A DNA stretch of 59,244 nt, the filler included. It is 5 parts of 5 records of this genome, joined end to end, with 100 filler letters (N's around TTAATTAATTAA, not from the genome) between each part and the next. Parts side by side here need not be neighbours in the genome. Positions count along the whole stretch, not along the records: positions 7,597 to 36,889 come from SRR2962707_922; 4 more parts are not named here. One strand, 5' to 3'. The notes below the pieces were generated by a model, which had not been told where the DNA came from, made no database searches, and saw nothing but the letters and a program-made list of their open reading frames with translations. Of this stretch, positions 10,038-30,324 are shown one piece after another; positions within the stretch are counted from its first letter, which is position 1; each line of letters opens with the position of its first letter. The position numbers and the translations under genes were made by a program.

Positions 10038-11371
10038 GCCTTGCTTTGATTGAGCCCCCGCGCTCGCAGCGCGACATGAAGGCACACAATGCCGGCAAGC
10101 ATCGCGCCGGCCAGCACCGGCGCCTGCCAGTCCCCAGAACTTGCGCGCACCACAATCAGCGCGACACAGACCATGGCACCTGATGCCGGGACCCATCGTG
10201 GCACCTCGAATTTCCCATTCGTCTCGCCAGGGCGACCCTGCAGCATGAACAACGCGGCATTGACGACAGCGAACACGACCAGCAGCAGCAATACCGACGC
10301 CGATGCCAGCTGGGCGATGCTGCCGAAGAAGGCCAATGGAATGAGCAGGACCAGCAGGACGGCCGTCGCCATGTGCGGCGTCTGCGTGCGGTGGTGCACC
10401 AGTCCGAGCGCCTTGGGAAGCAGGCCCTGTCGGGCTATACCATAGACCATGCGCGAACTGGTGACGTAGTTGACCAGCGCCGTGTTGGCGACTGCAAACA
10501 GGGTAATGCCGGTAAATACCAGCGCCGGGATGGTCGGTGCAGCGCGCTGCATGACCTCAGTCAATGGGGCTGGCGCCAGGGCGAGCTCCTGCCACGGCAC
10601 GACAGACACGGCCGTGATAGCCACGGCGACATAGATCAGTGCTCCGATCAACATCGCCGATACCAGCGAGATTGGAATGGCCCGCTGTGGATCATGGCAC
10701 TCTTCAGCGATATTGAGTGTGTCCTCGAAGCCGATGAAGGCAAAGAAGGTCAGCACCGCCCCCTGAAACACCAGCACGACCAAGGCGTCCCCGCCGATCA
10801 TATTGGGCGTCTCCAGCAGATCAACCGAACCCCAATAGGGAATGCCGACGGCAATGACCAGAAGCAGTCCGGCAGCCTCGATCAGAGTACAGACAACGTT
10901 GACCCACATCGATTCCCGGATGCCGCGCAGCACCAGACTCGTGAGGATGAGCAGAAATCCTATGGCAATGGCCCAGACGGGCAAGAACGTCAGCTCGAGC
11001 AGGGCGCTCAGGTTGACCGCGAAGACCTGGGACTGCGTTGCGATCGATGTCAGTCCCGAACAAACGACGGCCAGCCCAACCACGAAGCTGAGCAACGGCA
11101 TGCCGAAAGCCCGCTCCGCCACATAGGCCGCGCCGCCTGCACGCGGATAGCGCGACCCCAGTGAGGCGTAGGACAGAGCGGTCAGCAGAGCCGCGATCAT
11201 GGCAACGAGAAACGCCAGCCAGACGGCATTGCCGGTCTGGCCGGCAGCCTGGCCGATCAGGCCGTAAATGCCTGATCCGAGCATGCTGCCCAGGCCATAG
11301 AGTGTCAGCTGGAACGGGCCGACCGACCGGCGCAGCGCTGAAGGTTGAGCAACAACGCTTGTCTCAGTCAC
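10034..11371 (-). CDS. APC-superfamily amino acid permease
   Basis: GSMLGSGIY, FAFIGFE and about 12 hydrophobic segments; GTG start at 11371 just after the SDR stop. Confidence 0.92.
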   Translation of the reverse strand: MTETSVVAQPSALRRSVGPFQLTLYGLGSMLGSGIYGLIGQAAGQTGNAVWLAFLVAMIAALLTALSYASLGSRYPRAGGAAYVAERAFGMPLLSFVVGLAVVCSGLTSIATQSQVFAVNLSALLELTFLPVWAIAIGFLLILTSLVLRGIRESMWVNVVCTLIEAAGLLLVIAVGIPYWGSVDLLETPNMIGGDALVVLVFQGAVLTFFAFIGFEDTLNIAEECHDPQRAIPISLVSAMLIGALIYVAVAITAVSVVPWQELALAPAPLTEVMQRAAPTIPALVFTGITLFAVANTALVNYVTSSRMVYGIARQGLLPKALGLVHHRTQTPHMATAVLLVLLIPLAFFGSIAQLASASVLLLLVVFAVVNAALFMLQGRPGETNGKFEVPRWVPASGAMVCVALIVVRASSGDWQAPVLAGAMLAGIVCLHVALRARGLNQSKA

Positions 11372-11378
11372 CTGCGGA

Positions 11379-12134
11379 CTACTGGGCCACGTAGCCACCA
11401 TCGACGAGGTGGTAGCTACCGGTGATGAACGAGGCCTCATCCGACAACAAGAAACAGGTCAGCGCCGCAACCTCCTCGGAGCGGCCCAGCCGCCCGATTG
11501 GATGCATTCCGGCGATTGCGCCGAGTGTGGCTGCATCGAGGTTTTTCGAGAGCAGTGGCGTGTCGATAAAGCCCGGTCCCACCGAATTAATGCGGATGCC
11601 CTTGGCCGCATACTCGACGGCCGCGGCCTTGGTCAGGCCCAGCACGCCGTGTTTTGCGGCGACATAGGCAGACGAATTGGCGAAGCCGACCGAGCCAAGA
11701 ATGGAGGCCATGTTGACGATGGCACCGCCACCGGCGCGCAGCATCGCGGTAATCTCATATTTCGTGCAGAAGAAGACCGCGTTGAGATTGACGTCGATGA
11801 CCTTCTGCCAGCCATCGAGTGGATAGTCGCCCGTTGGTGCGCTTGGCCCTCCAATGCCGGCATTGTTGACCGCCAGATGCAGGGCGCCATAAGTGCGCTC
11901 GGCGAACGACACCATTGCTTCTACTTCCATTGGATCGGCGACATTGAGTTCGAAGGGTGATGCGATGCCGCCAGCCTTTTCAATGGCCCGAACGACAGCC
12001 TCCGCACCGGACGCGTCCAGGTCGGCAACAAGAACCTTGGCCCCTTCTTTGGCGAGTTGCAGCGCGACTGCCTCGCCGAGGCCGGACGCGCCCCCCGTGA
12101 CCAGGGCAACCTTCGTTTCAAATCTCATGCTCAC
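11379..12134 (-). CDS. Short-chain dehydrogenase/reductase
   Basis: TGGASGLG, NNAG, YVAAK, PGFIDT. Confidence 0.95.
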   Translation of the reverse strand: MSMRFETKVALVTGGASGLGEAVALQLAKEGAKVLVADLDASGAEAVVRAIEKAGGIASPFELNVADPMEVEAMVSFAERTYGALHLAVNNAGIGGPSAPTGDYPLDGWQKVIDVNLNAVFFCTKYEITAMLRAGGGAIVNMASILGSVGFANSSAYVAAKHGVLGLTKAAAVEYAAKGIRINSVGPGFIDTPLLSKNLDAATLGAIAGMHPIGRLGRSEEVAALTCFLLSDEASFITGSYHLVDGGYVAQ

Positions 12135-12138: not shown

Positions 12139-12501
12139 TCAGTCCTTTGTGTTGCTCGGCAGGGACGAACCGGCCTGCGCCGGTTCGAGTGTCTTGAGGT
12201 AAGCGATTATGGCTGATGCCTGATCAGGATCAAATTCGAACGGCGGCATTTCAGGATGCGCCGTGACGATGCCTTCCACCAGAGCCTCGGCAAGGTGCTC
12301 GACGTCGTAGCGCAGGTGGAGATCTCGAAATCTCGGCGCGATGGCCAGCGGGCTTTCGCCGGTCATCTCCGTTGCATGGCAATCGGTGCAGTACATCTGC
12401 ACAAGAACCTGGCCCGCGACCACTGCGTCATCGGCCAGGGTCGGAACAGCAGCAGAGGTAAGGAGCATTACTCCAATGGTTAGCCGGACCAAGCCGTTCA
12501 T
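12139..12501 (-). CDS. Small periplasmic monoheme cytochrome c
   Basis: Signal peptide, CTDCH, distal HPEMP. Confidence 0.9.
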   Translation of the reverse strand: MNGLVRLTIGVMLLTSAAVPTLADDAVVAGQVLVQMYCTDCHATEMTGESPLAIAPRFRDLHLRYDVEHLAEALVEGIVTAHPEMPPFEFDPDQASAIIAYLKTLEPAQAGSSLPSNTKD

Positions 12502-12899
12502 GCTGAAGCGATCGCGCGCTCGACCTCTGTCATAGAATGCCCTGTCAGATCCTTGGCAATCTCACCCTGGAGCAGGGCTACCAGGGTCTTGTGATAGTGC
12601 TTGCGCATTTCACCGAGCGCGCGCGGCGCGGCAATGATGACCAGCCCCTTGATGGCGCCGCTCAGAACCTGCTGGTTGAGATAGTCGACCGTGCCGGCCG
12701 AAAATCCGTCTTCGCCGGCTTGGCCGTGATCGGGGTTGCCCGAACTGTTCTGGTGCCCGCCACTCGTGCTGGCGCTACTTTCGATGGCAAGGCGCGGCAG
12801 TGCTTCGAGCTTGAGGCCGGCCTCGTCACCGGAGTTGCGGAACAGGTTGAATTTTTCGCCGTCGGCAACGGCGATTGTCGTGCCCTTTGCAAGCATCAT
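12498..12899 (-). CDS. Host-attachment family protein (AtsE/baeRF12-like)
   Basis: VADGEK..LFRN, LVIIAAPRALGEMRK, EIAKDLT; AGGAG RBS. Confidence 0.85.
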   Translation of the reverse strand: MMLAKGTTIAVADGEKFNLFRNSGDEAGLKLEALPRLAIESSASTSGGHQNSSGNPDHGQAGEDGFSAGTVDYLNQQVLSGAIKGLVIIAAPRALGEMRKHYHKTLVALLQGEIAKDLTGHSMTEVERAIASA

Positions 12900-13522: not shown

Positions 13523-15325
13523 TCACAGCGGCCAGAAAAACAGGATCGAGGGGACACCGACGGCGATGATGATGGCTTCCAGCGGCAGCCCCATCCGCCA
13601 ATAGTCTCCAAAGCGGTATCCGCCCGGACCCATGATTATCGTATTGTTCTTGTGCCCGATCGGGGTCAGAAAGGCACACGACGCCGCCACGGCCACTGCC
13701 ATCAGGAAGGGGTCGGGCGAGACCTCCAGGGTCTGGGCGATGGACAGGCCGACAGGGGCGGCAATCAGCGCGGTGGCCACGTTGTTGAGGAAGTCGGAGA
13801 GGGTCATCGTGACTATCATCAGCAATGTCAGAATGGCCCAGGTCGGCAATGTGCCTGTGAGCGAAACTATGCCGTTTGCAATCAGCTCGGTTCCACCGGA
13901 GGTTTCGAGGGCCAGCCCGAGCGGGATCAGCGAGGCCAGCAGGACAATGATCGGCCATTCCACCGATTCATAGACTTCGCGCGGGCCAATAATGTTGAAC
14001 AAGGCGTAGATGCTAACGACCATGGCCAGGGCAACAGCCAGTGAAAACAGGCCCATCACCGAGCCGGCCACAGCAGCGGCAAACACGGCAATGGCGAACA
14101 GCGCCTTGCTGCGTTGAATGACGGAGTGACTCCTTTCCGCGATGGGAAGCACACCCAGCCAGTCGATCGCGTCGTTCACGCGGTTTTCCGGCCCTAGCAG
14201 CAGCACGACGTCGCCTGGCTGAATCGGCAGTTTCCGAACGCGCTGGCGGAAACGGCGACCCTGCCGGGCGACGCCGAGAAGCGCCACACCACGCCGGTTT
14301 CGCAGGCCCAGGCCAAGAGCGGTGCGGCCGACCATCCGCGCATTGTCTGGAACTATCGCTTCAATCAGGGTGAGGGACTTTCCTCGGAGCCCGACATGAT
14401 CTTCGGTGCCCAGGGTCTCCAGATTTGCCGCCCCGATGAATGCCTCGATGGACTTCGGATCACCCTCAAGGATCAGCATGTCGGCGGCGCGCAACTCGGT
14501 GCTCGCGGAAAAGCCAGGAAGCCGGCGCCCGTTCCGCACTATCCCCAGAAGGGTGATGTCGTGCTCTTCGGCCAATGGCAGGAGATCGTCCGGAGTTTTG
14601 CCGAGGCTCTTGGACTCCTCCCCCAACACCGCTTCGGCCACGAACAATCCCTTGTCCTGTTCATGGCCCGCGACGGCGGCTCCAGCGGCAGGCAGCAGGC
14701 GCCAGCCGATCAGGGTGACAAAGGCAATACCCACCAAGGCGCAAGTCAGGCCGACCGGCGTGTAGTCGAACATGGAATAGGGTGTGCCCAGCGTGCGCTC
14801 GCGAAATTGCGAGACGACAATATTGGGCGGCGTTCCGATGAGAGTGATCATGCCACCCAAAATTGTGGCGAAGGACAAGGGCATCAGCGAGCGAGCGACA
14901 GAGCGCTTGCCCTTCTTGGCAGCCTCGATATCGAGCGACATGAGCATGACCAGGGCCGCCACATTGTTGATGATCGCCGAGAGGGCCGCCCCGACGATCG
15001 ACATGATGCCAATGTGGCTGGACAGAGCTCGATCAGACGAAATCACCAGCCTGGCGATCAGCTCAACAGCGCCGGCATTGGCGAGGGCCCGCGATACGAT
15101 CAGGACCAATGCGATGATGACGACAGCTTCCTGCCCGAAGCCGGCAAATGCCTGATCTGGCGGCACGACGCCGGCGACGACGGCGATGAGCAAAGCCGCG
15201 AAAGCCACGAGATCATATCGAACCCGCCCCCAGACCAGGAACGCGAACACCAGGCCCATGAGAACAAAGAGAAATATCTGGTCATAGGTCACGTGTTTCG
15301 ATTGCTCCAGTCCGGTTGACGGCAA
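13523..15325 (-). CDS. SLC13/CitMHS-family transporter with TrkA-C domains
   Basis: TLIGTPPN, two central TrkA-C-like repeats, FLTPIGHKNN, GGYRFGDY. Start may be slightly downstream. Confidence 0.9.
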   Translation of the reverse strand: MPSTGLEQSKHVTYDQIFLFVLMGLVFAFLVWGRVRYDLVAFAALLIAVVAGVVPPDQAFAGFGQEAVVIIALVLIVSRALANAGAVELIARLVISSDRALSSHIGIMSIVGAALSAIINNVAALVMLMSLDIEAAKKGKRSVARSLMPLSFATILGGMITLIGTPPNIVVSQFRERTLGTPYSMFDYTPVGLTCALVGIAFVTLIGWRLLPAAGAAVAGHEQDKGLFVAEAVLGEESKSLGKTPDDLLPLAEEHDITLLGIVRNGRRLPGFSASTELRAADMLILEGDPKSIEAFIGAANLETLGTEDHVGLRGKSLTLIEAIVPDNARMVGRTALGLGLRNRRGVALLGVARQGRRFRQRVRKLPIQPGDVVLLLGPENRVNDAIDWLGVLPIAERSHSVIQRSKALFAIAVFAAAVAGSVMGLFSLAVALAMVVSIYALFNIIGPREVYESVEWPIIVLLASLIPLGLALETSGGTELIANGIVSLTGTLPTWAILTLLMIVTMTLSDFLNNVATALIAAPVGLSIAQTLEVSPDPFLMAVAVAASCAFLTPIGHKNNTIIMGPGGYRFGDYWRMGLPLEAIIIAVGVPSILFFWPL

Positions 15326-15430: not shown

Positions 15431-15832
15431 TCAAGACAGTTGGACAAAAGCCCGCAGCAGGTCCGAACGGCTGAGCAGGCCCACGAGGCGGCCGTCCTCG
15501 ACTACTGGAAAGCGTCGGTACGGTGTGGCCAGAAAACGCTCCGCAGCCGAGACGATGTCGAGCCCGGCATCCAAGGTCTCGGGCGCTCGGGTCATATACT
15601 GGTCCACGGTGCCGCCCCATTCCTTGTAGTAGGCCGCATTTAGTGCCGCCTTGAAGCAATCTTTCTTGGTAAGCATGCCGACAAGCTCGTCGGCCTCCTC
15701 CACCACAGGTGCTCCTGACAGTTTGCGATCGAGCAGCAGCCTGACAGCGTGAAGGATTTCCATGCCGGGCGGCACGGTGAGGACGTCGGTGACCATGAAG
15801 TCGGCTATGGTGCGGCGTTCAGTCATGGGCAT
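15431..15832 (-). CDS. CBS-pair domain protein
   Basis: SGAPVV...LVGMLT and RRFPVVEDGRLVGLLSRSD; RBS before the ATG at 15832. Confidence 0.9.
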   Translation of the reverse strand: MPMTERRTIADFMVTDVLTVPPGMEILHAVRLLLDRKLSGAPVVEEADELVGMLTKKDCFKAALNAAYYKEWGGTVDQYMTRAPETLDAGLDIVSAAERFLATPYRRFPVVEDGRLVGLLSRSDLLRAFVQLS

Positions 15833-16004
15833 TCTCCCCTCCATGCCGATGCGGACAAGCCTCGCAATCAAGCTTGCCGATGCATGACAGGCCTCCGCAG
15901 GACCCCTTGATCGGCGCCCGGCCCGCCATGACCCCGAGTGCCATGGCAGAGACGGCGAGCCCAAAAACCACTAACGCGGACAGAAACACAGCCATCGTCG
16001 CCTC

Positions 16005-16970
16005 CTAGACTTCAACCGCGGCAGAGAAGTCACCCGTGAAGACCGAATGCAGCCTGTCGTCTTCGCGTACGAGAAACAAGGCATCAAGGCCCCGTTGCTC
16101 GGCCAGCGCCACGCCCTTCTCAACACCGGCGGCAGCAAGCGCGGTCGCCCAACCGTCGGCCAGCGCCGGGTCGCGCCCGAGAACGGATACCGAAGCCAGT
16201 CTCGTATCCGCTGCCCGTCCGCTCGCCGGATCGACGATGTGTCCGTAGGATCTGCCGGCATGCGCGTAGCTCTGGACACTGTTGCCGGACGTTGCCACCG
16301 TCCGGCCGTCCAGCCGAAGGATATGGGAAACCCCGCTGCCGCCCGGCATTTCAACGCCCACCTGCCAGCCGCGCCCCTCCGGGTGCTGGCCACGGGAGAT
16401 GACCTCGCCGCCAAGATCGAGCAGATAGTCGGTGACGCCTGACTGCGCCAGCGCTGCCGCCATACGACCGAGAGCCTCGCCCTTGGCGATGCCGCACAGG
16501 TCCACTGTCAACCTGCCCCGATGCTTGCGGACCGCGCCCGGTTGGGCGGCAAGCTCCTCGAAGGATCCAGTGACCCCGCTGATCGGGCCGAAGCCCTGCC
16601 GCGCCACTGCCGGCCCCACTGTCGGTTCGAAGACGCCGCCACAAGCTTGTGCCAGCGTCAGACTTTGCCCGACAAGCGTGCTGAATGCGTCTGGCACCAC
16701 TTGCCAGTCCGTGCCGTCATGGCGGTTGAATTGCGACAATACGCTGTCTGCCCGGTAGGGAGAAAAGAGCTGGTCGACCTCGGCGATGATGTAGGAAAAG
16801 CTTATGCTGACTGCGTCATGATCGATCCCCTGAGGCACGCTCAGCCGCCAATATGAGCCGAAGGCCCTGCCGCCAAGAGTGGCAAGCTGACGCGCCAGCG
16901 CCGGCACGGCACCGGTCACAAGGGTTGCGGCGGAGAGGGCCATGAAATTGCGTCGTGTCAGCATGATCAT
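16005..16970 (-). CDS. apbE: FAD:protein FMN transferase with Tat signal
   Basis: TRRNFM Tat motif, DLCGIAKG, VATSG, HIVDP, ADGWATAL; last gene of the nqr operon. Confidence 0.92.
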   Translation of the reverse strand: MIMLTRRNFMALSAATLVTGAVPALARQLATLGGRAFGSYWRLSVPQGIDHDAVSISFSYIIAEVDQLFSPYRADSVLSQFNRHDGTDWQVVPDAFSTLVGQSLTLAQACGGVFEPTVGPAVARQGFGPISGVTGSFEELAAQPGAVRKHRGRLTVDLCGIAKGEALGRMAAALAQSGVTDYLLDLGGEVISRGQHPEGRGWQVGVEMPGGSGVSHILRLDGRTVATSGNSVQSYAHAGRSYGHIVDPASGRAADTRLASVSVLGRDPALADGWATALAAAGVEKGVALAEQRGLDALFLVREDDRLHSVFTGDFSAAVEV

Positions 16971-18187
16971 ATCCCGAAATCGTCGTTGAAGATGGCGTGC
17001 GGCTCTACCCCGCAGCTGTCGAGCATCCCCAGCACCGCCTGAATCATCAGCGGGGGGCCACAGAGGTAGAATTCGCAGGCCTCGGGCGCCGGGTGGTCCT
17101 TCAGATAGTCACGCAGCACGACTTCGTGGATGAACCCTGTCGCACCGCGCCAATCATCCTCAGGCTGCGGCTCGGAGAGCGCCAGCGTCCATCGGAAATT
17201 GTCATGTGTCCGCGTTAGCGCATCGAACTCGTCCTTGTAGAACACATCGATCCCGCTGCGCGCGCCATACCAGAAGGTGATCTTCCGTTTCGTGCCTGCG
17301 GCGAGCTGTTCATGGATCATTGCCCTCAATGGAGCCATACCGACGCCGCCACCGATGAACACCATCTCGCGGTCCGTATCCTGCACGTGGAAGTCGCCGA
17401 ACGGACCGGACACGGCCACGCTGTCTCCTTGCTGCAGGCCGAAGAGGTATGACGAGACAATGCCGGGCGGCACCCCTTCATCCGCACCGGCCGGCGGCAC
17501 CGCCAGGCGGATATTGAGAACGATCAGCCCCTCGTCCTCGGGGCGGCTCGCAACCGAATAGGCCCGGTGCACCGGCTCCCGGCTGACCGATTTCAGCCGC
17601 CGCCATCCTTGAGTTTCCCAGTGAGAGGCGTAGCCGGGCTCGATCTGGAGTGACGCGAAATCGAGCGTATATGGCGGTGCCTCGATCTGGACATATGACC
17701 CCGCTCGAAACGCGAAGGTCACCGCCTCGGGCACTTCGAGAACCAGCTCCCGGATCAGTGGCGCCAGCATGCGGGCCGAGCGCACCCGCGACGTCCAGCT
17801 CTCGGCGGCGAGAATGTCGTCCGCAACCCCGACGGACAGGGGTCCGCGCACCATCACCTGGCAGGCAAGCCTCTGTCCTTGCTTGAGATCGCTCCGCGAC
17901 AGACGCGCAAGTTCGGTCGGTAGGGGCGCGCCGGCACCGTCGATCACCCTGACCCTGCACAGCCCACAGGTTCCGGCTCCGGCACAGGCCGATGGGACGG
18001 GGATGCCGGCGCCGTTGAGAACGCTGAGGAGCTTCTCTCCGGTGTGACCGGTGATTTCTGTGCCGCCATTGATGGTGATTGGCACCGGTCCAGATGGCGA
18101 AATGACCGACCGCACGCCGATCACCACACCTGACAGGACGAGGATCAGCACAATGATCAGAACCGTGCCGAGCGCGATCTCCATCAT
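16967..18187 (-). CDS. nqrF: Na+-NQR subunit F
   Basis: N-terminal TM helix, [10 protein letters not shown]...RLACQ (2Fe-2S), [22 protein letters not shown]. Confidence 0.96.
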
Positions 18188-18783
18188 AGTTGCACCCCAG
18201 AAAAGGCGGTGAAACCCATCGACATCAGTCCGGTGACGATAAACGCCATACCCAGCCCCCGCAGACCGACAGGAATATCGGCATAGTTCAGCCGCTCGCG
18301 GATCGCGGCCAGCCCCATGATGGCAAGCGCCCAGCCGATACCCCCGCCGAGACCGAAGACGACGCTCTCGGCAAAATCATAGTCGCGCTGTGCCATGAAC
18401 AGGCTGCCCCCGAGAATGGCGCAATTCACGGTGATCAGCGGCAGAAAGATGCCAAGCGCGCGGTAAAGCGCCGGCACGAAGTGATCGAGCGCCATCTCCA
18501 GGACCTGCACCACCGCCGCGATCACCCCGATAAAGGCGATGAGGCTGAGAAAGGTGAGATCGACGCCGCCAAGTCCGAGCCAATCCCAGGCATTGGGCGC
18601 GAGCAGGCGCGAGAGGATCAGGTAGTTGAGCGGTACGGTGATTGTCTGCACCACGATGATCGCAATGCCGAGTCCCATCGCAGTATCGAGCCGCTTGGAC
18701 ACCGCCAGGAAAGTGCAGACCCCTAGAAAAAAGCTGAGGATCAGATTGTCGGCAAAGATCGAGCGAACAAAGAGATCGATCAC
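18184..18783 (-). CDS. nqrE: Na+-NQR subunit E
   Basis: [29 protein letters not shown]. Confidence 0.96.
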
Positions 18784-19436
18784 GGCGCTCTCCTGTTCGG
18801 CTCGATGGAAATCTCATAGTCGGCGGGCTCGATCTGGGCAGGGCGGACCGACCGGATGGCCCAGATCAGAAGTCCGAGCAGGAAGAAGGCGCTGGGCGCC
18901 AGCAGCATCAGATTGAGCGGGGTGAACCAGCCGCCATCATGGATGGTTGGAAACACCGTTTGTCCGAACAGTGTCCCGGCACCGAACAGTTCACGCACAA
19001 AACCGATGAGCAGCAGCACCAGCCCATAGCCGAGCCCATTGCCAAGCGCATCAAGAGCGGAAAGTCCCACCGGATTGCGCATGGCGAAGGCCTCGGCCCG
19101 CCCAAGCACAAGACAATTGGTGACGATCAGGCCCACAAAGATCGAAAGGCGCTGGCTGATGTCGAATGCAAAGGCCTGGATCGCTTGGTCGGCGACGATC
19201 ACCAGCGATGCGATGATGGTGATCTGCAGGATGAGGCGGATGGAGCTGGGGATATGGTGCCTGATCGCGCTGATGATCATGCTGGAGGCAACAAGCACCA
19301 CAATCAGTGCCAGCGACATTACCAATGCCGTCGTCATCGAGGTTGTGACCGCTAGGGCCGAACAGATGCCTAGAATCTGCAGGGTGACCGGATTGTTGTC
19401 GATCAAGGGAGCGTAAAGATGCTGCAGCCGCTTCAT
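18780..19436 (-). CDS. nqrD: Na+-NQR subunit D
   Basis: [36 protein letters not shown] overlap with nqrC. Confidence 0.96.
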
Positions 19437-20242
19437 TGCAGTCCCGTCCCTTGCCGCAGATTGGCCAGCACATCTTCGAAGCCGTATTCGCCGAGCCAGA
19501 AATGGATCGCGGCGGTGATGGCGTTGCCGGTGCGGGTCGCCCCGGTGATGCCATCCACCTCGAATGCGCTGGTCGCCCGGCCCCTGACGACCGACAGCCT
19601 GATCTCGCCATCCTCTCCGGCGAGTTCCTTGCCCGGCCACAGTGCCTGCCAGGCGGGCTCCTCGATCCGAGCGCCCAAGCCTGGGGTCTCACCCTGTTCG
19701 ATGATCGAGAGCCCGGCCACAGTATTGAGATCGCCCTCAAGGGCCAGATGTGCCCGAATGGTTGATTGATAGCCAACCGCCCAGATCGGCAGGATCACCA
19801 GGCGCAATTCACTGTCTGCACGCAGGATGTGGATAGGGGCCAGGTCGGCCCGGCGCCCGAGGCCGGCTATGTCCGCCTCGCTGGGTATGGCAGAGGACGT
19901 TTCGGGGTCTTCCGCCGCCGCTGCGATATCAAAGGTGGCCGGGTCGATATCGGTCGGCTCACCGGTCTCGAGGTCGACGACGACCGTTTCGAGGCTGTCC
20001 GCGCCATATTGGGCGACAATGTCGGCGAGGCCGGGCATGCTCTCGAGCATTGCGGCCAACCGCGCTTCCCGTTCGGCCGTGAGATTGGCATCCCGCATCG
20101 GCGCCAGCAGCACGGCAGCGCTCGAAACGAGCAACGCGCAAATGCCCGACACGATGAACGCCATGGAGATCGTCTTTGTCCGGCTCTCATTGGGCAGGGC
20201 CAGGAGTCGCGCCCACCAGTTCAGTGGATTGAGATCAGGCAT
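19433..20242 (-). CDS. nqrC: Na+-NQR subunit C
   Basis: N-terminal TM helix, GETPGLG, flavinylation motif DGITGATRT. Confidence 0.95.
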
Positions 20243-21020
20243 GGCCGCCCCTCCATTTTCGCGTTACCACCGCGATTGCGGCCGCATCGAGCAGTGGCGC
20301 AAAGAGCGAGGCAAGCAGGGTGGCGAACACCACCGCCTGCGGCGCATCTATGCCTGCATCCGCCCAGCCGAAGATCGCAACCAGTGCTCCGGCCAGCGCG
20401 CCATATGCCCAGCGCCCCATTCTGGTGGACGCCGAGGCGACCGGGTCGCCGATCAGGAAAACCAGTCCAAAGACAAGGCTGCCTTCAAGAAACGGCGCCG
20501 CAGGGTCTTGGCCGAGCGCAAACGTAGCCAGCACCAACCCCATGGTCGCTGCCACAGCGATCCGCCACGAAAGCACGCCCATCACCAGCAGAAGAAGCGC
20601 GCCGAAGCCCGCCGCAACCGCAACCAGCGGACCGGTGCCGGTGTGCAGTACTTCGGGGAAGGCGAAATAGAAGAAGGCCAAGGTGACCACGCCTGCATTG
20701 ACGACATTGCGCCCCCAGCCGCCGAATATCTGTTCACCCATGACGGTGCCGAAGCTGGCTGCAAGCACGATCTGCCACATCTCGGTGGTACCCGACGCCA
20801 GCACGGCAACCGCAAAGGCGGTGACCAGCGCGATGGGGGACAGCGGCTGGGCCCGTGTGAACAGGAATACGCCTTGCCAAAAGCTGATCACCGCAAGCGC
20901 CACACCGAAGCGCTGCATGGTGGCAAATCCGAGATCCAGGCTCGCGGCCACTACCACCGGAAGCATCGCCGAGACGATGATCCAGGAAACGGTATCCCTG
21001 TGCCAGATGCCGCGCATCAC
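20235..21020 (-). CDS. nqrB: Short NqrB/RnfD-family subunit (261 aa)
   Basis: IFGGWGRN, AFFYFAFP, SWRI, GDPVASA, WAYG, LFAPLLD; lies between nqrA and nqrC; no (S/T)GAT motif. Confidence 0.88.
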   Translation of the reverse strand: MMRGIWHRDTVSWIIVSAMLPVVVAASLDLGFATMQRFGVALAVISFWQGVFLFTRAQPLSPIALVTAFAVAVLASGTTEMWQIVLAASFGTVMGEQIFGGWGRNVVNAGVVTLAFFYFAFPEVLHTGTGPLVAVAAGFGALLLLVMGVLSWRIAVAATMGLVLATFALGQDPAAPFLEGSLVFGLVFLIGDPVASASTRMGRWAYGALAGALVAIFGWADAGIDAPQAVVFATLLASLFAPLLDAAAIAVVTRKWRGGHA

Positions 21021-22258
21021 GCCGCCTCGAGCATGTCGAGCACCGCTCGCAGCCGCGCTCCGAAATCGGTTTCACCGCCCGTCGCATAGGTCGCGAGGGC
21101 CAGATCGTCTTCCCCCAACTGCAGACAACCCATTTGTGCTGCCCGGTCCGCATCGCCAATGCTGAGCGCGCGCAACAGTGGAACGGCCGGCATGTCTGGT
21201 CCCAGGGTCCTGTCAACTGCTGCAGTTGGCACAAAGGCCGCCGGTGCCGAGGCGCGGCCCAGCGCCGCGATAAGCCAGTTGCGGGCGCGCGGTTCGACGC
21301 GGGCCACCACGCTCGCCTGCAGGTGATAGCGAGAGAGAAACTGCGCTTCGCGCCCGTCGAGTATGGCGCCAGAAAGAATGCGTTTGGGTCCAGGCGTCAG
21401 TTGCGGGCGGGATAGGGCGTGAAGGTCTGCTCCCATCGGAACCCGCAATAGCTGCGGCTGTTGCGTGCCAGGTCCGGCAAGGCTGATGCTGCGCGAAAAA
21501 TCGATGGTGCCACGCGCGAGCAGTTGTCCGAGCGCTGCCACGTCCTGATAATTGATATGCCACACAGGTGCGCTGGACGTCGCCGGATGCAGGCTAGCGA
21601 TGTGGGTGCCGGGAAGTCCGGCGGGATGGAATCCGGTGAATCGCACCACCGAGACACGGTCCTGCGGCTCCACCAGATCAACGCCGTCACCCTGGCAAAC
21701 ATAGACTTGGCCTTGCGTCAGAAGGCTGAGCGCGCCTACGCCGCGAGCGAAGCTATCTTCCATCCCACCCAGGACCACCGCAGGATCAGGCGCATGAGGA
21801 CGCGTGTCGATCGCAGTGACGAACACCGCCGCTGGCTCGGCATCGGGTGCCGGTATCCGGTCGAACGGCCTACTGCGAAGAGCCGGCCAAAGCCCGGCCT
21901 GCTGCATCAGCGACCGCACTCCCGCCGGCGTGCCGGTTGCCGCCAGTTCAAATCGTACCGTGTCCTCCCCCTCGGCTAATATTGTCAGCAGGGAAAGCCG
22001 CCGCTGAGGGCCGATTTCGATCTTCTCGATCCGTCCGGACAATGGAGACGTAATCACTATCTCCGTTCGCTTCCGATCCTGAAACAGCGGGCTGCCACAG
22101 GCGACTGCCTGCCCTGCTTCGACCAGTATTTCGGCGCGGATGCCGGGATAGTCGGCGCCCGCAAGCCCTATTCTGGGGACACGCGTTGGGACAAATTCCC
22201 CGTCCGGCAATGCCCCTGCAAAAGGCAGCGGAAGCCCGTGACGAATGACTATATTCAT
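21017..22258 (-). CDS. nqrA: Na+-NQR subunit A
   Basis: LFQDRK, SPLSG, GLWPALRSRPF, HPAGLPGTHI, LLRAL, LGEDDLAL. Confidence 0.92.
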   Translation of the reverse strand: MNIVIRHGLPLPFAGALPDGEFVPTRVPRIGLAGADYPGIRAEILVEAGQAVACGSPLFQDRKRTEIVITSPLSGRIEKIEIGPQRRLSLLTILAEGEDTVRFELAATGTPAGVRSLMQQAGLWPALRSRPFDRIPAPDAEPAAVFVTAIDTRPHAPDPAVVLGGMEDSFARGVGALSLLTQGQVYVCQGDGVDLVEPQDRVSVVRFTGFHPAGLPGTHIASLHPATSSAPVWHINYQDVAALGQLLARGTIDFSRSISLAGPGTQQPQLLRVPMGADLHALSRPQLTPGPKRILSGAILDGREAQFLSRYHLQASVVARVEPRARNWLIAALGRASAPAAFVPTAAVDRTLGPDMPAVPLLRALSIGDADRAAQMGCLQLGEDDLALATYATGGETDFGARLRAVLDMLEAA

Positions 22259-22312
22259 CCTCGCCTCATTTGCTTTCCGCCAAGAGCATAAGCCAAAAAT
22301 TTGACCGGCACA

Positions 22313-22326
22313 TTGTTCTAGATCAA
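22313..22326. promoter_or_regulatory. FixK/FNR box centred between divergent nqrA and the cytochrome gene
   Basis: TTGTT-ctag-ATCAA (1 mismatch), about 55-60 bp from each start codon. Confidence 0.7.
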
Positions 22327-22386
22327 TACTCCCTTGGACCTTTTACTGATAAGTTGCGTGACAACTTGGGCAGGGAGGAGAACGCA

Positions 22387-23439
22387 ATGTTCAGGCTGAC
22401 TAGGTTCGCTTCCGTTGCGGGTATGCTTCTGGCGGCATGCGGGTCCGCATTTGCCCAGCAATCGCCAGCCACTCTGGAGATTATTGAACTGTGGCGGCAG
22501 TCGGGGCATGCCGATTCCTCGTCTGCATCGTTTACGCACTGGCAAGGCGAGAGCGAGGTTCCCGCCAATTGTGCTACCTGCCATTCCGGAGAGGGCTTCC
22601 GCAGTTTTTACGGAATTGACGGTTCAGCCAAAGGCGAGGTGTCGCACCCGATCGTCCCTGGCGGAGTCATCGACTGCGCGACTTGCCACGAACCCGGTGT
22701 GTCGGATATCGGCAGCGTTCACTTCCCGTCTGGCCTCGAGGTCAGTCCGCCCGACGGCACAGCTACCTGCATGACCTGCCATCAGGGCCGTCAATCCGGT
22801 ATCGACGTGGCGTCAGCAACCCAGGAACTACCGGACCACGACGTCAATTCCGAGTTGCGCTTCATCAACCCGCACTATGCAGTGGCCGCAGCGACCCTGT
22901 ACGGCAGCGAGGTCAAAGGCGGTTATGAATATCCTGGGCGCACCTATTCGGGGCGCTTCGCCCACGTGCCGTCTTTTGCCGCCTGTGCAGATTGTCACGA
23001 CCCTCACAGCTCGCAGGTCCAAGTCGAGACCTGCACCGGCTGCCACCAAGTCGCCGAACTCACAGCTATCCGCACTTCAGGTGCCGACTTCGACGGCGAT
23101 GGCAATATCTCAACCGGCATTCATGCGGAGATCGCAGCGCTACACGCACAGCTGCAGGACACAATCACTCACTATGCCGCCAACGTCGCCGGCATACCGA
23201 TCGCTTATGCGGACCGTTTCCCTTACTACTTCGTCGGTGGCGCAGAGACGACGCCGGCTAACCGCTACGCGGGCTGGACACCGGCGCTTCTGCGGGCTGC
23301 TTACAACTATCAGTTTATTGCCAAGGACCGTGGCGCATATGCCCACAATCCGCATTATGCCGTGCAGCTGCTTCACGACAGCATTACCGACCTTGCCCAG
23401 GCAAGTGGCATGAATGCAAACTTGGGTGAGCGTCCGTAA
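22387..23439 (+). CDS. Periplasmic pentaheme c-type cytochrome
   Basis: Signal peptide; CATCH, CATCH, CMTCH, CADCH, CTGCH; GGAGGAG RBS before the ATG at 22387. Confidence 0.92.
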   Translation: MFRLTRFASVAGMLLAACGSAFAQQSPATLEIIELWRQSGHADSSSASFTHWQGESEVPANCATCHSGEGFRSFYGIDGSAKGEVSHPIVPGGVIDCATCHEPGVSDIGSVHFPSGLEVSPPDGTATCMTCHQGRQSGIDVASATQELPDHDVNSELRFINPHYAVAAATLYGSEVKGGYEYPGRTYSGRFAHVPSFAACADCHDPHSSQVQVETCTGCHQVAELTAIRTSGADFDGDGNISTGIHAEIAALHAQLQDTITHYAANVAGIPIAYADRFPYYFVGGAETTPANRYAGWTPALLRAAYNYQFIAKDRGAYAHNPHYAVQLLHDSITDLAQASGMNANLGERP

Positions 23440-23574: not shown

Positions 23575-24555
23575 ATGGAGATATGGTTTCTGCTCCTCGG
23601 AGGGCTCGTTCTGCTGGTCGTGGGCGGCGAGCTTCTGGTCCGTGGCGCCGTGCAGGTTGCGACCCGTCTGGGTGTTTCGCCGCTCGTGATCGGATTGACT
23701 CTGGTCGCCTTTGGTACTTCGGCTCCGGAACTCGTCACCTCGCTGCAAGCAGCGCTCGCAAATGCGCCTGGCATCGCCTATGGCAACATCGTCGGTTCAA
23801 ATATTGCGAATGCGCTGCTCATTGCTGGTGTTGCGGCCATAATAAGCCCAATGATGATCGCTTCAACGGCATTGAAACGTGACGGCATCGTGATGCTTGC
23901 TGTCGTAACGGCCTTTGTAGCATTCGCATTCGTCATGCCGCTTGGCCGGGGCATTGGCATCGTCTTTGTCGGTGCGCTTGTCGCCTATGTCTACCTTGCC
24001 TTTCGGCAGGAGCGATCGTCAGCTCCACAGGGCCATGGGGCCATTTACGACAAGAGTCTCGCGCTACAACAAACGGATGTCGGCCTTGCGCCGTCGAAAA
24101 GGCTGGGGGGCTCGGTTGTCGTGTCAGGCCTGATCGCGCTGGGAGGCCTTGTCCTTGTCATTCTCGGCGGACGCTTTCTCGTTGATGGGGCGGTTTCCCT
24201 GGCGCGCGGGTTCGCTATTTCGGAAACAGTGATTGGGCTGACCATTGTCGCAGTCGGCACATCCATGCCCGAATTGGTAACTTCGGTCGTAGCAGGGCTA
24301 CGCAAGCAGGGCGATGTCGCGTTCGGCAACATCGTGGGCTCGAATATCTACAACATCCTCGGTATCGGTGGCGCAACGGCCCTTATTGTACCTGGCGCGG
24401 TCCCCGCTGAGATTGTCGACTTCGACAATTTTGTCATGCTCGGTGTTACCCTATTGCTCGTGATCTTCGCTTGGACAGGATTGCGCATTGGCCGCCGGGA
24501 AGGTGCAATTCTCCTCGCCGGTTACGCTGCCTACATCTATTTCATCTTGCCTTAG
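23575..24555 (+). CDS. Ca2+/Na+ antiporter (CaCA/YrbG family)
   Basis: Two alpha repeats: GTSAPE...GNIVGSN and GTSMPE...GNIVGSN. Confidence 0.94.
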   Translation: MEIWFLLLGGLVLLVVGGELLVRGAVQVATRLGVSPLVIGLTLVAFGTSAPELVTSLQAALANAPGIAYGNIVGSNIANALLIAGVAAIISPMMIASTALKRDGIVMLAVVTAFVAFAFVMPLGRGIGIVFVGALVAYVYLAFRQERSSAPQGHGAIYDKSLALQQTDVGLAPSKRLGGSVVVSGLIALGGLVLVILGGRFLVDGAVSLARGFAISETVIGLTIVAVGTSMPELVTSVVAGLRKQGDVAFGNIVGSNIYNILGIGGATALIVPGAVPAEIVDFDNFVMLGVTLLLVIFAWTGLRIGRREGAILLAGYAAYIYFILP

Positions 24556-24950: not shown

Positions 24951-25439
24951 ATGGCACCGCAGACCTATTCGAAGACCCAGATTGCTCTGCACTGGATAAT
25001 TGCGCTTCTGGTCCTGTTTCAGATCGTGGTGCATGACGAGATTGTGCGACTCTGGGCCGGACGAATTGACGGCACGCTACCCAATGCTCCGGCCCCGGCA
25101 CCGAACGCTCATGTCGCCATCGGAATCCTGATCTTGGCTCTCGTCGTCTGGCGCCTTGTGCTTCGCCTCACCCGAGGGGTGCCCGCGCTTCCTGCAGACG
25201 AGCACCCGGCGCTGAAACTGGTGGCAAGCGGCACGCATATCCTATTCTACGTGCTGCTGATCGGCATGCCGCTGTCCGGCGCCGCCGCCTGGATACTGGG
25301 CGTGACCACGGCCGCTCAGGCGCATTCGATCGCAGAAAAGCTCCTGATCCTGCTTATTGCTCTGCACCTGTTGGCGGCCTTGACCCAGCACTTCTGGTTC
25401 AGAACAGACGCCCTGAAGCGGATGCTCGGCAGAGCGTAG
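24951..25439 (+). CDS. Cytochrome b561 (CybB-like di-heme membrane cytochrome)
   Basis: YS..QIALHW, HVAIG, HILFY..L..MPLSG, HLLAAL.QH. Confidence 0.9.
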   Translation: MAPQTYSKTQIALHWIIALLVLFQIVVHDEIVRLWAGRIDGTLPNAPAPAPNAHVAIGILILALVVWRLVLRLTRGVPALPADEHPALKLVASGTHILFYVLLIGMPLSGAAAWILGVTTAAQAHSIAEKLLILLIALHLLAALTQHFWFRTDALKRMLGRA

Positions 25440-27049: not shown

Positions 27050-27709
27050 CTACTCGGCCAGCCCGCAGAGGCCGGCCAAGTCGAGGACTTCGATCTGGCT
27101 CACGGTGGGGAGGCGTATCAGTCTTGCGTCCTTGAGCGTCTTCAGCACACGCGACACAGTTTCAAAAGTAAGGCCAAGATAGTCGGCGATATCGTTGCGC
27201 TGCATCGACAGATCGATAATTCGATCAGCGTCCTGTCGCTCATGGAGATCGACTAGGAATGCGGCCATTTTCTCCGATGCGTTCATTCGCCCAAGCAGCA
27301 GCAAATGGTCTTGGATACGGGCCATTGTCCGCAGCGCGATGGTCAGGGCATCCTCTCCAAGCCTAGCATCGGAATTCGGGCGAAGCAGCCGAATACCGGT
27401 GCCGTCCACGCTTTCTGCATAGTTCTGATGTTCCCTGCCGGGCTCGAAACCGAAAACCTCACCGGCAAAGTGGAACGAATTGATCTGTCGGCGGCCATCA
27501 GCCGTTAAGCGACAAATCCGTACGGTGCCGAATTCCACGAGATAGAGTGGACCACTGGTCTCACCCTGGCCATAGATTGCTTCGTTCGGATTGTAGAACG
27601 ACACCGCGCAAGGGCGGGCTTTTGCCAGCAGCGACCGCAGCACAGGATCAAATTGGGTTACAGGTGCGGCCATATGCGATGAAGAAGGGTGAAGCGACTG
27701 GATCAGCAT
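27050..27709 (-). CDS. fixK: CRP/FNR-family regulator FixK
   Basis: DGRRQI, GEVFG, DIADYLGLTFETVSR; no N-terminal Cys cluster; downstream of fixLJ. Confidence 0.93.
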   Translation of the reverse strand: MLIQSLHPSSSHMAAPVTQFDPVLRSLLAKARPCAVSFYNPNEAIYGQGETSGPLYLVEFGTVRICRLTADGRRQINSFHFAGEVFGFEPGREHQNYAESVDGTGIRLLRPNSDARLGEDALTIALRTMARIQDHLLLLGRMNASEKMAAFLVDLHERQDADRIIDLSMQRNDIADYLGLTFETVSRVLKTLKDARLIRLPTVSQIEVLDLAGLCGLAE

Positions 27710-27789
27710 GGCCGTGTCCTCGGTTTCCAATGAACCGAAATTGGCCGAATTCTTCTCACGAGAATATTCCGGTGCGACTCCTAGGGGGT

Positions 27790-28146
27790 TTACTTAGCGT
27801 CCCCGCGGCCCCGCTCTGCCGAACGAAGAGCAGCCTCGACAGCAGCAATGAGCGGTTCGCCCAGAAGCGGTTTGCGAACCACGCGAAAGACCATGTCTTC
27901 GAGCCATGGCGATGTACTGCCAGCGAGCAGGACGATAGGCCCCGACATCACCTGCAGCTCCGCGAGGCTTCCAGGTCTCTCAATCGCCCGATGGTCCAGG
28001 ACGGCGCAGTCGAAGAGTTGATCCTTGGGGATGGTGGCGATGTCAGCCTGAGGCGTAACCGCATACCCTGCGGCCTCAAGTAGGAACTCCAGCGATCTCC
28101 GCAGATCGCTATCTGGCGCAATGATGAGCAGGCGGCGTCTAGGCAT
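27790..28146 (-). CDS. Single-domain response regulator, FixT-like
   Basis: LRRSLEFLLEAAGY, CAVLDH, KPLLG; located between fixJ and fixK; degenerate acidic pocket (IIAPD). Confidence 0.75.
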   Translation of the reverse strand: MPRRRLLIIAPDSDLRRSLEFLLEAAGYAVTPQADIATIPKDQLFDCAVLDHRAIERPGSLAELQVMSGPIVLLAGSTSPWLEDMVFRVVRKPLLGEPLIAAVEAALRSAERGRGDAK

Positions 28147-28217
28147 GGAGCTGGATTCCCGGCGCCACAATGAACCACGCGCCTTGATCTCTTGTAGCGC
28201 CCCTAGACTTTGGTGGG

Positions 28218-28231
28218 TTGTCCTAGATCAA
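28218..28231. promoter_or_regulatory. Imperfect FixK/FNR box upstream of the fixT-like gene
   Basis: TTGTC-ctag-ATCAA overlapping the fixJ stop codon. Confidence 0.55.
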
Positions 28232-28870
28232 GAACGAATCCGATGAGTCATCACCTTTCTGAGACTCGATGCTCAAAATCATCCGGACCAGTTCCGGGAG
28301 GTTCTTAGCCTGCATCTTGGACATCAACCCCGCGCGATAGACTTCCACCGTTCGCGGGCTGATGCCGAGCTCGAAGGCGATGGTCTTGTTCGGCTCGCCA
28401 GACACCACGCCGTTGAGAACCTGCATTTCGCGTTCGCTTAGCGTGCCCAGCCGCTGGCGCGTGGCCTCGATGGTGGCCTCGTTTCTTTGGTGCGTCTGCG
28501 CGGCGTTAACAGCCCGGCGGATCGACTCGATCAGGACATCGTCACTGAAAGGCTTCTCGATGAAGTCCAGGGCACCGTTCTTCATGGCCTCTACGGCCAT
28601 CTGCACGTCACCGTGGCCAGTAATGACGATCGCGGGCAGAAGTGTGCCGGCTTCCCTCAATCGCTTCAGGAGCTCGACTCCGCTCATGTCCGGCATGCGA
28701 AGGTCGGTAACGAGACAGCCCGCCCGGATGCTAGCAGCCTCACGTATGAAGTCTGTTGCGCTCAGGTGTGTGCGCACGGCGAAGCCCGCACTTCCGAGCA
28801 GAAAAGCGACTGAATTCCGGACTGCTTCCTCATCGTCAACGATGTGGACCACGATGTTGACACCGCTCAT
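28223..28870 (-). CDS. fixJ: Response regulator FixJ
   Basis: VHIVDD, DLRMP, TGHGD, DFIEKPF, Lux[15 protein letters not shown]. Confidence 0.96.
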
Positions 28871-30324
28871 CGACTGGCCTCTTCAATTGTCGGCAGCGTA
28901 AACTGAAATGTGGCGCCGCCAGCACCGTTTCGGCTGGCTTCTATCGTGCCGCCGTGCGCTTCAATGATGCGCCTGGATATCGAGAGGCCAATGCCCATCC
29001 CGGTTGGCTTGCTGGTTATGAACGGCTGGAACAGCTGAGGCGAAACATCTTCCGATATCCCCGGCCCGGTATCGGAAACCTCGACCATAATCCGCTCGGC
29101 TGTAGCCAGGCGAGCGCTAACCGTCAGATCCTTGACCGAACTGTCGCGCATTGCCTCCATCGCGTTTCGCATTAGGTTAATGAGCACCTGCTGGATCTGA
29201 ACCCGGTCGACCAGTACCAGTTCCAAGCCTTCGCCATAGTCGAACACCGTTCGAATGCCGCGCTCACGGGATCCCACCAGAGCAAGTGCGCCCGCCTCCT
29301 CGATGAGGTTCTTGACGTCCTCAGCATGGCGCTCGGTATCGCCTCGCGTGATGAACTCTCTGAGATGACGAATGATTTCTCCTGCCCGAAGCGCCTGCTT
29401 GGCCGCCTCAGACAGGGCACCCCGCATACGGGTTGCTGGTTCCGAGTCGATCTTGTCGAGTATTCGGATGCAACCCTGCACATAGTTGGCGACCGCCGAT
29501 AGCGGTTGATTGAGCTCGTGCGCTAAAGTCGACGCCATCTCGCCGAGCTCGTTTAGGCGCGAGAGGCGGGCAAGTTCGCTTTGTGCTTCGTTGAGCCTGG
29601 CCTGGCTTTCCTCCTGCTCTGTCAGGTCACGGATGAACCCGGTGAAGTATGTCACGCTACCTGAGCGCATTTCACCAACAGCGAGCTTCATCGGAAAGGT
29701 CGATGCGTCCTTGCGCCGGCCCACGACCACTCGGTCGATCCCGATGATCCGCTTTTCACCAGTGCTCAAATAGCGCGCAAGGTAGCTATTATGCTGCTCG
29801 CGATAGGGGCCCGGCATCAGCATGCTGACGTTCTCGCCAACCACCTCCTCGGGACGGTAGCCGAACTGCCTCACCGCTGCGGCATTGAAGGAAACGATCG
29901 TACCGTCCGTTTCGATGACGATCGTCGCGTCGGGCACCGTGTCAAGGATCGACTGGAGGTGGGCTTCGCGACGATGGAGTGCGCGCGTACTCTCCTTCGC
30001 CATGGTATGTGCCCGTTTGAAAGAACCACCCAACCAAGCGATGGTAGCGCCAACAACGACGAAAAGAAGAATGTTGACCACGACCGTCGCTGCATCGTCT
30101 CGGCCCAACGCGAAATATACGACCAGAGGTGCTGACACTGCAGTGCTCAGCAGCCCCGGCACCAAGCCGCCTGCAATTGCGCCCACCAGTATGGCGGGCG
30201 TGAACAACAGGCCAATGGCCGAATTCGGCAGGACGTCGTGGATGCTAAACCGGATCAGGAAAGCAACGAGGATCAAGGCGCCCGAGAGGACGTATGCAGT
30301 CCACCGTCCCTTCAGCGATATCAT
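28867..30324 (-). CDS. fixL: Membrane-anchored heme-PAS O2 sensor kinase FixL
   Basis: N-terminal TM helices, [46 protein letters not shown]. Confidence 0.96.

Follow-up and report, generated by a model that had tools for sequence, protein, structure and literature searches.

The window analyzed here is a joined stretch of 59,244 nucleotides (nt), and all positions are given along the whole of it. It carries an operon for a variant of Na+-NQR, the complex that in its canonical form passes electrons from reduced nicotinamide adenine dinucleotide (NADH) to quinone. In this variant the NqrB subunit is unusually short, and divergent from the operon lies a gene for an exported pentaheme cytochrome c. 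The genes, and the palindrome between them, are listed below, with FMN and FAD standing for flavin mononucleotide and flavin adenine dinucleotide.

22387-23439, + strand: exported pentaheme cytochrome c with a predicted NrfA/OcwA-like fold, 350 residues, ATG at 22387, divergent from nqrA
22313-22326, between the divergent start codons: FNR/FixK-type palindrome TTGTTCTAGATCAA
21017-22258, - strand: nqrA, 413 residues; Pfam NQRA_N, NQRA_2nd, and NQRA_SLBB
20235-21020, - strand: short nqrB, 261 residues, covalent-FMN loop and N-terminal quinone helices missing
19433-20242, - strand: nqrC, 269 residues, periplasmic FMN subunit with flavinylation site T236; TIGR01938
18780-19436, - strand: nqrD, 218 residues, start at MKRLQ, Cys25 and Cys108; TIGR01939; aligned to 7xk3_D
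18184-18783, - strand: nqrE, 199 residues, Cys23, Cys121, and Pro115; TIGR01940; aligned to 7xk3_E
16967-18187, - strand: nqrF, 406 residues, 2Fe-2S, FAD, and NADH sites; TIGR01941; aligned to 8a1t_F
16005-16970, - strand: apbE, flavin transferase; Pfam ApbE, E 6.4e-56
15819-15995, - strand: nqrM, maturation factor, 58 residues; Pfam NqrM, 24.9 bits against a cut-off of 22
about 15431-15832, - strand: stand-alone CBS-pair gene, last of the operon; Pfam CBS, E 2.8e-28; start inferred

Organization of the operon

From nqrA to apbE, every pair of neighboring genes overlaps by 4 or 8 nt, which bears out the translationally coupled nqrABCDEF-apbE operon described in a first-pass annotation of the window. 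That annotation overlooked two further genes, nqrM and the CBS-domain gene. A locus scan with one genome per species recovered 239 short-nqrB loci, of which 80 were kept for locus counts; among the 67 long enough to show the 3' end, 66 have the CBS gene behind the operon and 63 have apbE. A second occurrence of nqrM was found in genome G001.

Tested against the curated NCBIfam models, NqrC (154.7 against a cut-off of 144), NqrD (271.8 against 244.85), NqrE (297.6 against 247.55), and NqrF (472.2 against 295) pass, and NqrA (286 against 321.05) and NqrB (91.2 against 349.9) fail. As a separate observation, comparison in 500-bp bins with a public record from a Devosia sp. metagenome-assembled genome (MAG) gives the window 99.4-100% identity on both sides of positions 15900-19000, and within that interval identity falls to 89-97% over apbE, nqrF, and nqrE, with the frames open in both sequences. 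The dip could reflect strain recombination or the co-assembly of two strains.

Losses and retained parts of the short NqrB

As first annotated, NqrB is only 261 residues long and has no (S/T)GAT; the wider pattern [ST]GA[ST] is likewise missing from it, and the stop-to-stop frame permits at most 17 additional upstream residues. The deletions were mapped by aligning a profile of 19 short NqrB sequences to NqrB of Vibrio cholerae, whose residue numbers are used below for the equivalent positions. Profile positions 34-126 correspond to V. cholerae residues 129-221, and the alignment then jumps, positions about 127-259 corresponding to residues about 270-411. The intervening stretch, residues about 222-269, which includes the FMN-bearing T236, is therefore deleted, and only about 33 residues stand in for V. 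cholerae residues 1-128. The ubiquinone site is described in PMC10643135 as consisting of two amphipathic helices, AH-I and AH-II, with G141, F159, and L138. Both helices fall within the N-terminal part that is so reduced in the short proteins. At the quinone-site positions themselves, glycine is found in only 8 of 34 short NqrB sequences for G141 and in one of 34 for G140, and phenylalanine in none of 34 for F159.

Other parts are kept. The gate residue F338 is present in 21 of the 34, F342 is Phe in 20 and Tyr in 5, and the conserved acidic residue D397 is found in all. An AlphaFold2 model (predicted local distance difference test, pLDDT, 87.8) superposes on V. cholerae NqrB (Foldseek to 8a1x_B, E 1.4e-10, query-normalized template-modeling score, TMq, 0.81), which argues for an intact membrane protein. 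NqrB is thus predicted to be a folded subunit without the covalent flavin and the quinone pocket.

The first-pass annotation had left room for decay confined to this contig; instead, the short NqrB forms a widespread and separate clade, represented at all 239 loci of the scan. A protein search with NqrB yielded 160 relatives with E <= 1e-3. Nearly all of the top 120 have 250-275 residues, and their sources are Devosia, Maritalea, Pelagibacterium, Hoeflea, Paracoccaceae, Alloalcanivorax, and Burkholderiaceae; Maritalea myrionectae, Pelagibacterium halotolerans, and Devosia marina are among the carriers that can be cultivated. A quick maximum-likelihood tree built from 55 sequences contains a branch, with a Shimodaira-Hasegawa-like approximate likelihood ratio test (SH-aLRT) value of 100, that parts 34 short NqrB from 12 canonical alphaproteobacterial NqrB and 9 RnfD. 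Taxa intermingle inside the clade, where Alloalcanivorax clusters with Cucumibacter and Burkholderiaceae lie among alphaproteobacteria, and this suggests spread by horizontal transfer. [ST]GA[ST] is missing in 31 of 32 short NqrB, compared with its presence in 11 of 12 canonical ones (the twelfth has TSAT). The TGAS of one Hoeflea NqrB (L048) was considered as a relocated flavinylation site and rejected, its sisters having SGAQ and SGAE there. Two loci at first classed as "other" (L117 and L118) likewise encode a short NqrB, followed by nqrC, nqrD, and nqrE.

The closest available genome has a single NqrB/RnfD gene. All five carriers searched have NuoD, so that the complex appears to be an accessory NADH dehydrogenase.

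Linkage to multi-heme cytochromes

The association with a cytochrome, which the first-pass annotation had seen at this one locus, recurs elsewhere. Seven of the 80 kept loci have too little upstream DNA to be assessed; of the remaining 73, 62 carry a gene for a multi-heme cytochrome c, which is the pentaheme in 57 and a tetraheme or NqrC fusion in 5 more. Counted over all 80 loci, the pentaheme gene is divergent from nqrA and adjoins it in 53 and lies elsewhere within the locus in 4; a small multi-heme open reading frame (ORF) is found in 4 (three are PF14537 tetrahemes, and one, with three CXXCH motifs, looks cut), and one locus encodes an NqrC with a C-terminal tetraheme domain. As a control, 12 canonical nqr loci from alphaproteobacteria were retrieved together with their flanks; they contain neither the pentaheme (0 of 12) nor an ORF with at least two CXXCH (0 of 12).

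The same pattern is seen at the level of genomes. Among 151 Devosiaceae genomes, 23 have the pentaheme and 32 a short nqrB; in all 23, the two genes share a contig at a distance of 1.4-6 kb, and the pentaheme is absent from all 119 genomes that have no short nqrB. In a class-wide sample of 401 genomes, it occurs in two. One complete Devosiaceae genome (G492:C1) has two cytochrome/short-nqrB pairs, at 1422987-1426183 and 2465842-2469038, whose nqrB copies score alike (363.6 bits each).

The fused NqrC, from a Bauldia MAG (L024), consists of an FMN_bind domain (155-248), a Pro/Ala-rich linker, and a tetraheme domain (Cytochrom_c3_2, 306-387, E 3.9e-18). A database search with its C-terminal part showed that such fusions form seven 90%-identity clusters of 387-396 residues from separate sources, each with one TGAT and four CXXCH. 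Because a periplasmic FMN domain is here joined covalently to a heme carrier, no other single observation speaks as strongly for an exchange of electrons between FMN-NqrC and these cytochromes. In the same MAG, the genes are split into two divergent units within 3375-11955, nqrA-nqrB-nqrC (the fusion) and nqrD-nqrE-nqrF-apbE-CBS.

Cofactor sites of the other subunits

Cofactor residues were placed by alignment to V. cholerae chains from the PDB, and the sites that the first-pass annotation had called intact, namely those of NqrF, the four cysteines of NqrD and NqrE, and the TGAT of NqrC, are all found in register. In NqrF, C68, C74, C77, and C109 correspond to V. cholerae C70, C76, C79, and C111 (8a1t_F), and the protein carries RAYS and GGGVGMAP, which we take to represent the RxYS (FAD) and GGGxGxAP (NADH) motifs. 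NqrD C25 and C108 correspond to C29 and C112, and NqrE C23 and C121 to C26 and C120 (7xk3). We take C112 and C26 to be ligands of the NqrD/E cluster, and they coincide with the aligned cysteines; C29 and C120 are named as such in PMC10643135. Furthermore, NqrE P115 corresponds to V. cholerae P114. In NqrC, T236 of the sequence ITGAT aligns with the flavinylated T225, and G234-A235-T236 is invariant in 26 homologues.

The intergenic region and its candidate regulators

The 128-bp region between nqrA and the cytochrome gene holds the palindrome TTGTTCTAGATCAA, whose center is 61.5 bp away from the ATG of nqrA and 67.5 bp away from that of the cytochrome gene. Among 53 orthologous intergenic regions, 22 contain its exact form, TTGA-N6-TCAA, compared with 0.11 expected from shuffles, and in 13 of these 22 it is centered 58.5-71.5 bp upstream of nqrA; it is missing from a Paracoccaceae-rich subgroup. 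The window has five exact boxes, at 10024, 13396, 24868, 30920, and 31117, where 0.9 would be expected, and 4-7 kb from the intergenic palindrome lie its candidate regulators:

27050-30375, - strand: fixL, fixJ, a fixT-like gene, and fixK

FixJ exceeds the cut-off of its model (NF006900, 297.8 against 255); FixL (513.7 bits) and FixK (164.1 bits) are the best-scoring models for their genes, but their own cut-offs are not reached. The arrangement has the look of an island of FixK-regulated genes, and expression of the operon and the cytochrome gene is probably raised at low O2 by FixLJ-FixK acting on the shared palindrome. A scan for sigma-70 promoters and terminators was uninformative, with 3 promoter-like sites compared with 1.7 expected.

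Further boxes of this type stand near other genes of the window. A cytochrome b561 gene (24951-25439) has an exact box 83 bp upstream, the space between fixL and a BON-domain gene holds two more, and at 12139-12899 a monoheme cytochrome c gene follows a baeRF family 12/Host_attach gene downstream of a FixK-type box.

Proposed electron pathway

We propose that the gene products form a membrane-bound, six-subunit complex derived from NQR and matured by ApbE and NqrM. NADH would be oxidized at NqrF, and single electrons would pass from FAD to the 2Fe-2S cluster of NqrF, to the intramembrane 2Fe-2S cluster of NqrD/E, and on to the covalent FMN of periplasmic NqrC. In V. cholerae, FMN-NqrC swings between NqrD/E and NqrB (PMC12174285). 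In the variant, it would deliver its electrons to a soluble periplasmic multi-heme cytochrome c, which here would be the bis-His pentaheme and in other lineages a small tetraheme, sometimes fused to NqrC, and the cytochrome would hand them to further periplasmic acceptors. Because NqrB is predicted to be without covalent FMN and quinone pocket, the electrons would not be returned to quinone. That NADH electrons take this route through NqrF, NqrD/E, and FMN-NqrC to the cytochrome, bypassing quinone, seems to us reasonably probable from the sequences. An outward conduit of this kind had been suggested by the first-pass annotation, and the existence of the clade, the cytochrome linkage, and the loss of the FMN loop and quinone site all argue for it.

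The same annotation set the conduit in opposition to a Na+ pump, and here we find no support for it. The NqrF-NqrD/E-NqrC segment, which is held responsible for translocation in PMC12901251, is fully conserved; pumping is coupled to this very segment in that account, and the variant may well still pump Na+, with NqrD/E as the pump. A more specific version, which we put forward tentatively and think possible rather than probable, is that NqrF-NqrD/E-NqrC would be a self-contained pump, a Na+-translocating NADH:cytochrome c oxidoreductase working at low O2 past the quinone pool and bc1 and supplying periplasmic multi-heme carriers with low-potential electrons, with NqrB as a flavin-poor scaffold.

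Several observations weigh against the proposed pathway. The riboflavin ligands of V. cholerae NqrB are given in the legend to Extended Data Fig. 6 of PMC10643135, and among 34 short NqrB sequences G198 is kept in 32, D346 in 32, N200 in 25, and N203 in 19, and T162 is Thr in 19 and Ser in 6. NqrB may still bind riboflavin. NqrA aligns nearly full length (V. cholerae NqrA 2-341 and 372-443), and the riboflavin-site residues together with the retention of NqrA therefore point to a persisting function on the cytoplasmic side of NqrA/NqrB. Our confidence goes no higher than stated above because the pathway leaves both features unexplained. Of the broken return path over the FMN of NqrB, riboflavin, and quinone claimed in the first-pass annotation, the loss of the FMN loop and of the quinone features stands; since the riboflavin-site residues are conserved, that the path is interrupted is something we infer.

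The linkage, too, has exceptions. No cytochrome gene lies within the flanks at 11 of the 73 assessable loci (one has a fragment), and 9 of the 32 Devosiaceae carriers of short nqrB are without the pentaheme; of six such loci inspected, one has a PF14537 tetraheme 6 kb away. In the class-wide sample, the pentaheme gene of genome G129 lies 194 bp from a contig end in an assembly without any NqrB-family gene. The palindrome is present between the divergent genes, where the first-pass annotation placed a shared FixK/FNR box, but is imperfect: it fits 9 of the 10 consensus positions of TTGAT-N4-ATCAA, with one mismatch in the core, and an exact box is missing in 31 of 53 relatives. Short contigs assembled from the RNA libraries of two studies do cover nqrA, nqrC, nqrD, nqrF, apbE, and the cytochrome gene; these indicate presence in RNA libraries rather than levels or transcript ends, and DNA carry-over is possible. 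Finally, candidate acceptors are patchily distributed in five carriers, with ccoN and nirK above cut-offs in 3 of 5 and CCP_MauG in 1 of 5, so that none of them can be a universal partner of the cytochrome. As an incidental feature of the G129 contig (L090, G129:C10), a gene for a 541-residue FAD-dependent oxidoreductase adjoins the pentaheme gene at 9789-10868.

The pentaheme cytochrome: carrier or enzyme

The divergent gene encodes, as first annotated, an exported five-heme cytochrome, whose Sec-type leader ends in AFA/QQ and which has five CXXCH motifs. A lipoprotein was considered, the leader containing LAAC, and was rejected, the cysteine not being conserved in 30 homologues. At E <= 1e-5 the family comprises 1665 proteins, which carry only the names "cytochrome c3 family protein", "cytochrome C", or hypothetical in the source data. 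On the AlphaFold2 model (pLDDT 80.3), Foldseek against the PDB gave no match at E <= 0.001, the best being OcwA (probability 0.99, E 0.02). VIA-align matched the model to NrfA (1qdb, Z 10.6, root-mean-square deviation 4.9, 254 residues aligned), OcwA (6i5b, Z 10.6), an S-layer undecaheme cytochrome (Z 10.2), octaheme nitrite reductase (Z 10.1), and MccA. Among sequence families, only Cytochrome_C7 exceeds its cut-off (29.8 against 24.8), and there is a weak Pfam match to Cytochrom_C552.

These likenesses raise the question of whether the pentaheme is itself a terminal NrfA-like reductase, for a nitrogen or sulfur oxyanion or the like, with the NQR variant as its dedicated NADH-driven supply. 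The fold matches to NrfA, octaheme nitrite reductase, and MccA, the weak Cytochrom_C552 match, and the invariant Arg, Tyr, and Asn residues found among the homologues would all suit an enzyme. However, the 30 homologues have five CXXCH and no CXXCK, and five extra invariant histidines (41, 163, 193, 207, and 320), enough to complete bis-His ligation of all five hemes. Tetraheme carriers of the PF14537 type take its place in other lineages, and forms of 550-610 residues in MAGs of Anaerolineae and Planctomycetota are tandem repeats of the pentaheme module. The bis-His count, the interchange with carriers, and the tandem arrays lead us to favor a carrier over an enzyme, and we consider the terminal-reductase alternative unlikely. 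Four of the longer proteins (P0131, P0149, P0203, and P0233, from Anaerolineae and other MAGs) have two tandem modules each, 39-46% identical to the protein of the window.

Quinone reduction and the direction of electron flow

It might also be that the complex is still an NADH:quinone reductase, in which, the FMN loop being gone, the covalent FMN of NqrC docks into NqrB and reduces riboflavin directly and quinone is reduced at a remodeled site, the cytochrome being merely a co-regulated neighbor. Mere co-regulation leaves unexplained both the NqrC-tetraheme fusion and a linkage of 62 of 73 loci compared with 0 of 12, and the N-terminal amphipathic helices of the quinone site (PMC10643135) are absent, with Gly in only 8 of 34 sequences at G141 and Phe in 0 of 34 at F159. 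We thus judge this alternative to be quite unlikely, even though it would account for the conserved riboflavin-ligand positions, the Phe gate, the equivalents of D346 and D397, and the retention of NqrA, and even though a two-subunit Nqr/Rnf-like system without the Thr is modeled in PMC11334425 with the FMN of the partner near a non-covalent flavin site.

The link between NqrC and the cytochrome is silent on direction, and reduced cytochrome could instead feed NqrC, with the Na+ gradient driving uphill reduction of NAD+ and periplasmic donors thus providing NADH, as RNF, which runs in reverse (PMC12174285), is able to do. Against this, the two-electron NqrF is argued in PMC12901251 to make NQR, unlike RNF, one-directional; carriers of the variant possess complex I; lithotrophy genes are not conserved next to the cluster; and FixK-type control suggests disposal of electrons at low O2. 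Reverse flow therefore strikes us as improbable, and we retain the outward direction.

That the operon is a decaying remnant with an in-frame-deleted nqrB and no function, for which only the scores of NqrA and NqrB below their curated cut-offs speak, can be practically dismissed given the 239 genomic loci with genes intact across families, the deep and separate clade, the confident AlphaFold2 model, and the RNA-library contigs covering the genes.

Comparison with known systems

The variant shares with V. cholerae Na+-NQR (7xk3, 8a1t) the six subunits in like order, apbE and nqrM, the cofactor residues of NqrF, NqrD/E, and NqrC, and the core fold of NqrB (TMq about 0.8). It differs in that NqrB has neither the FMN loop with T236 nor the two amphipathic helices that form the quinone site at the N terminus, nor the G140/G141 pair, in the added CBS gene and the linked periplasmic multi-heme cytochrome, and in the scores of NqrA and NqrB, which fall below their equivalog cut-offs. 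Two defining features of Na+-NQR were tested for and found absent, so that the complex is not a Na+-NQR in the strict sense. Nor is it an RNF, having NqrF and NqrA in the places of the Fe-S subunits RnfB and RnfC. A parallel is the RNF of Methanosarcina acetivorans, which, as described in PMC12174285, is associated with an extra multi-heme c-type cytochrome, proposed to pass electrons on to acceptors in the membrane or outside. That system is archaeal, driven by ferredoxin, and built with RnfB/RnfC, whereas the complex described here would be driven by NADH and contains NqrF/NqrA.

The two-subunit Nqr/Rnf-like complexes of PMC8238504 and PMC11334425 likewise combine an NqrB/RnfD-like subunit without the flavinylated Thr with a flavinylated NqrC/RnfG-like partner, and one-way flow from NAD(P)H to the outside is proposed for them. 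Their NAD-binding domain is fused to the NqrB-like protein, with no NqrA/D/E/F and no cytochrome. The present complex has six subunits, PF00175 lies in NqrF, NqrB is a separate protein of 261 residues, and electrons would cross the membrane via NqrD/E. The predicted fold of the cytochrome resembles the pentaheme core of NrfA and OcwA (1qdb, 6i5b), with long C-terminal helices, but the protein is smaller (350 residues), 15-21% identical to them, and without the CXXCK motif of the catalytic heme. By analogy, the variant would work most like the one-way exporters of the two-subunit type, and like the RNF-cytochrome association of Methanosarcina. A literature search did not find a six-subunit NQR with flavin-less NqrB or linked cytochrome described, although the supplementary tables of PMC8238504, which lay outside that search, may list such complexes as ordinary NQR; the variant is apparently undescribed so far.

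The variant bears on a current dispute about the Na+ path of NQR. According to Hau et al. 2023, Na+ crosses through NqrB under the gating of FMN-NqrB (PMC10643135), and Ishikawa-Fukuda et al. 2026 hold that translocation occurs exclusively via NqrD/E (PMC12901251). The short-NqrB clade amounts to a natural experiment, with NqrF, NqrD/E, and NqrC intact and an NqrB that has no FMN and no recognizable quinone site: if the variant still pumps Na+, this would strongly support the NqrD/E model. If the proposed pathway is true, it would represent a new respiratory route, in which NADH electrons reach periplasmic cytochrome c directly with no quinone in between; many Alphaproteobacteria of marine and soil habitats would have it, as would some Burkholderiales and Alcanivoracaceae, and it would give a function to a large multi-heme cytochrome family that has no name.

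Surrounding genes

Few neighbors are conserved beyond the core cluster. Among 50 loci, 10 have a Na+/H+ exchanger near the cluster, 6 have a Na+/Ca2+ exchanger, and 5 have a CitMHS transporter, which is only a hint of a Na+ cycle.

Toward the ends of the window (1-6500 and 48000-59244), the G+C content is 0.50-0.55, compared with about 0.60 elsewhere, and 17 ORFs of 120-400 residues in these parts have no Pfam match at E <= 1e-5 and no PHROG match. The cluster itself is flanked by a CitMHS/Na-symporter-type transporter with TrkA-C domains at 13523-15325 and by a Na+/Ca2+ exchanger at 23575-24555.

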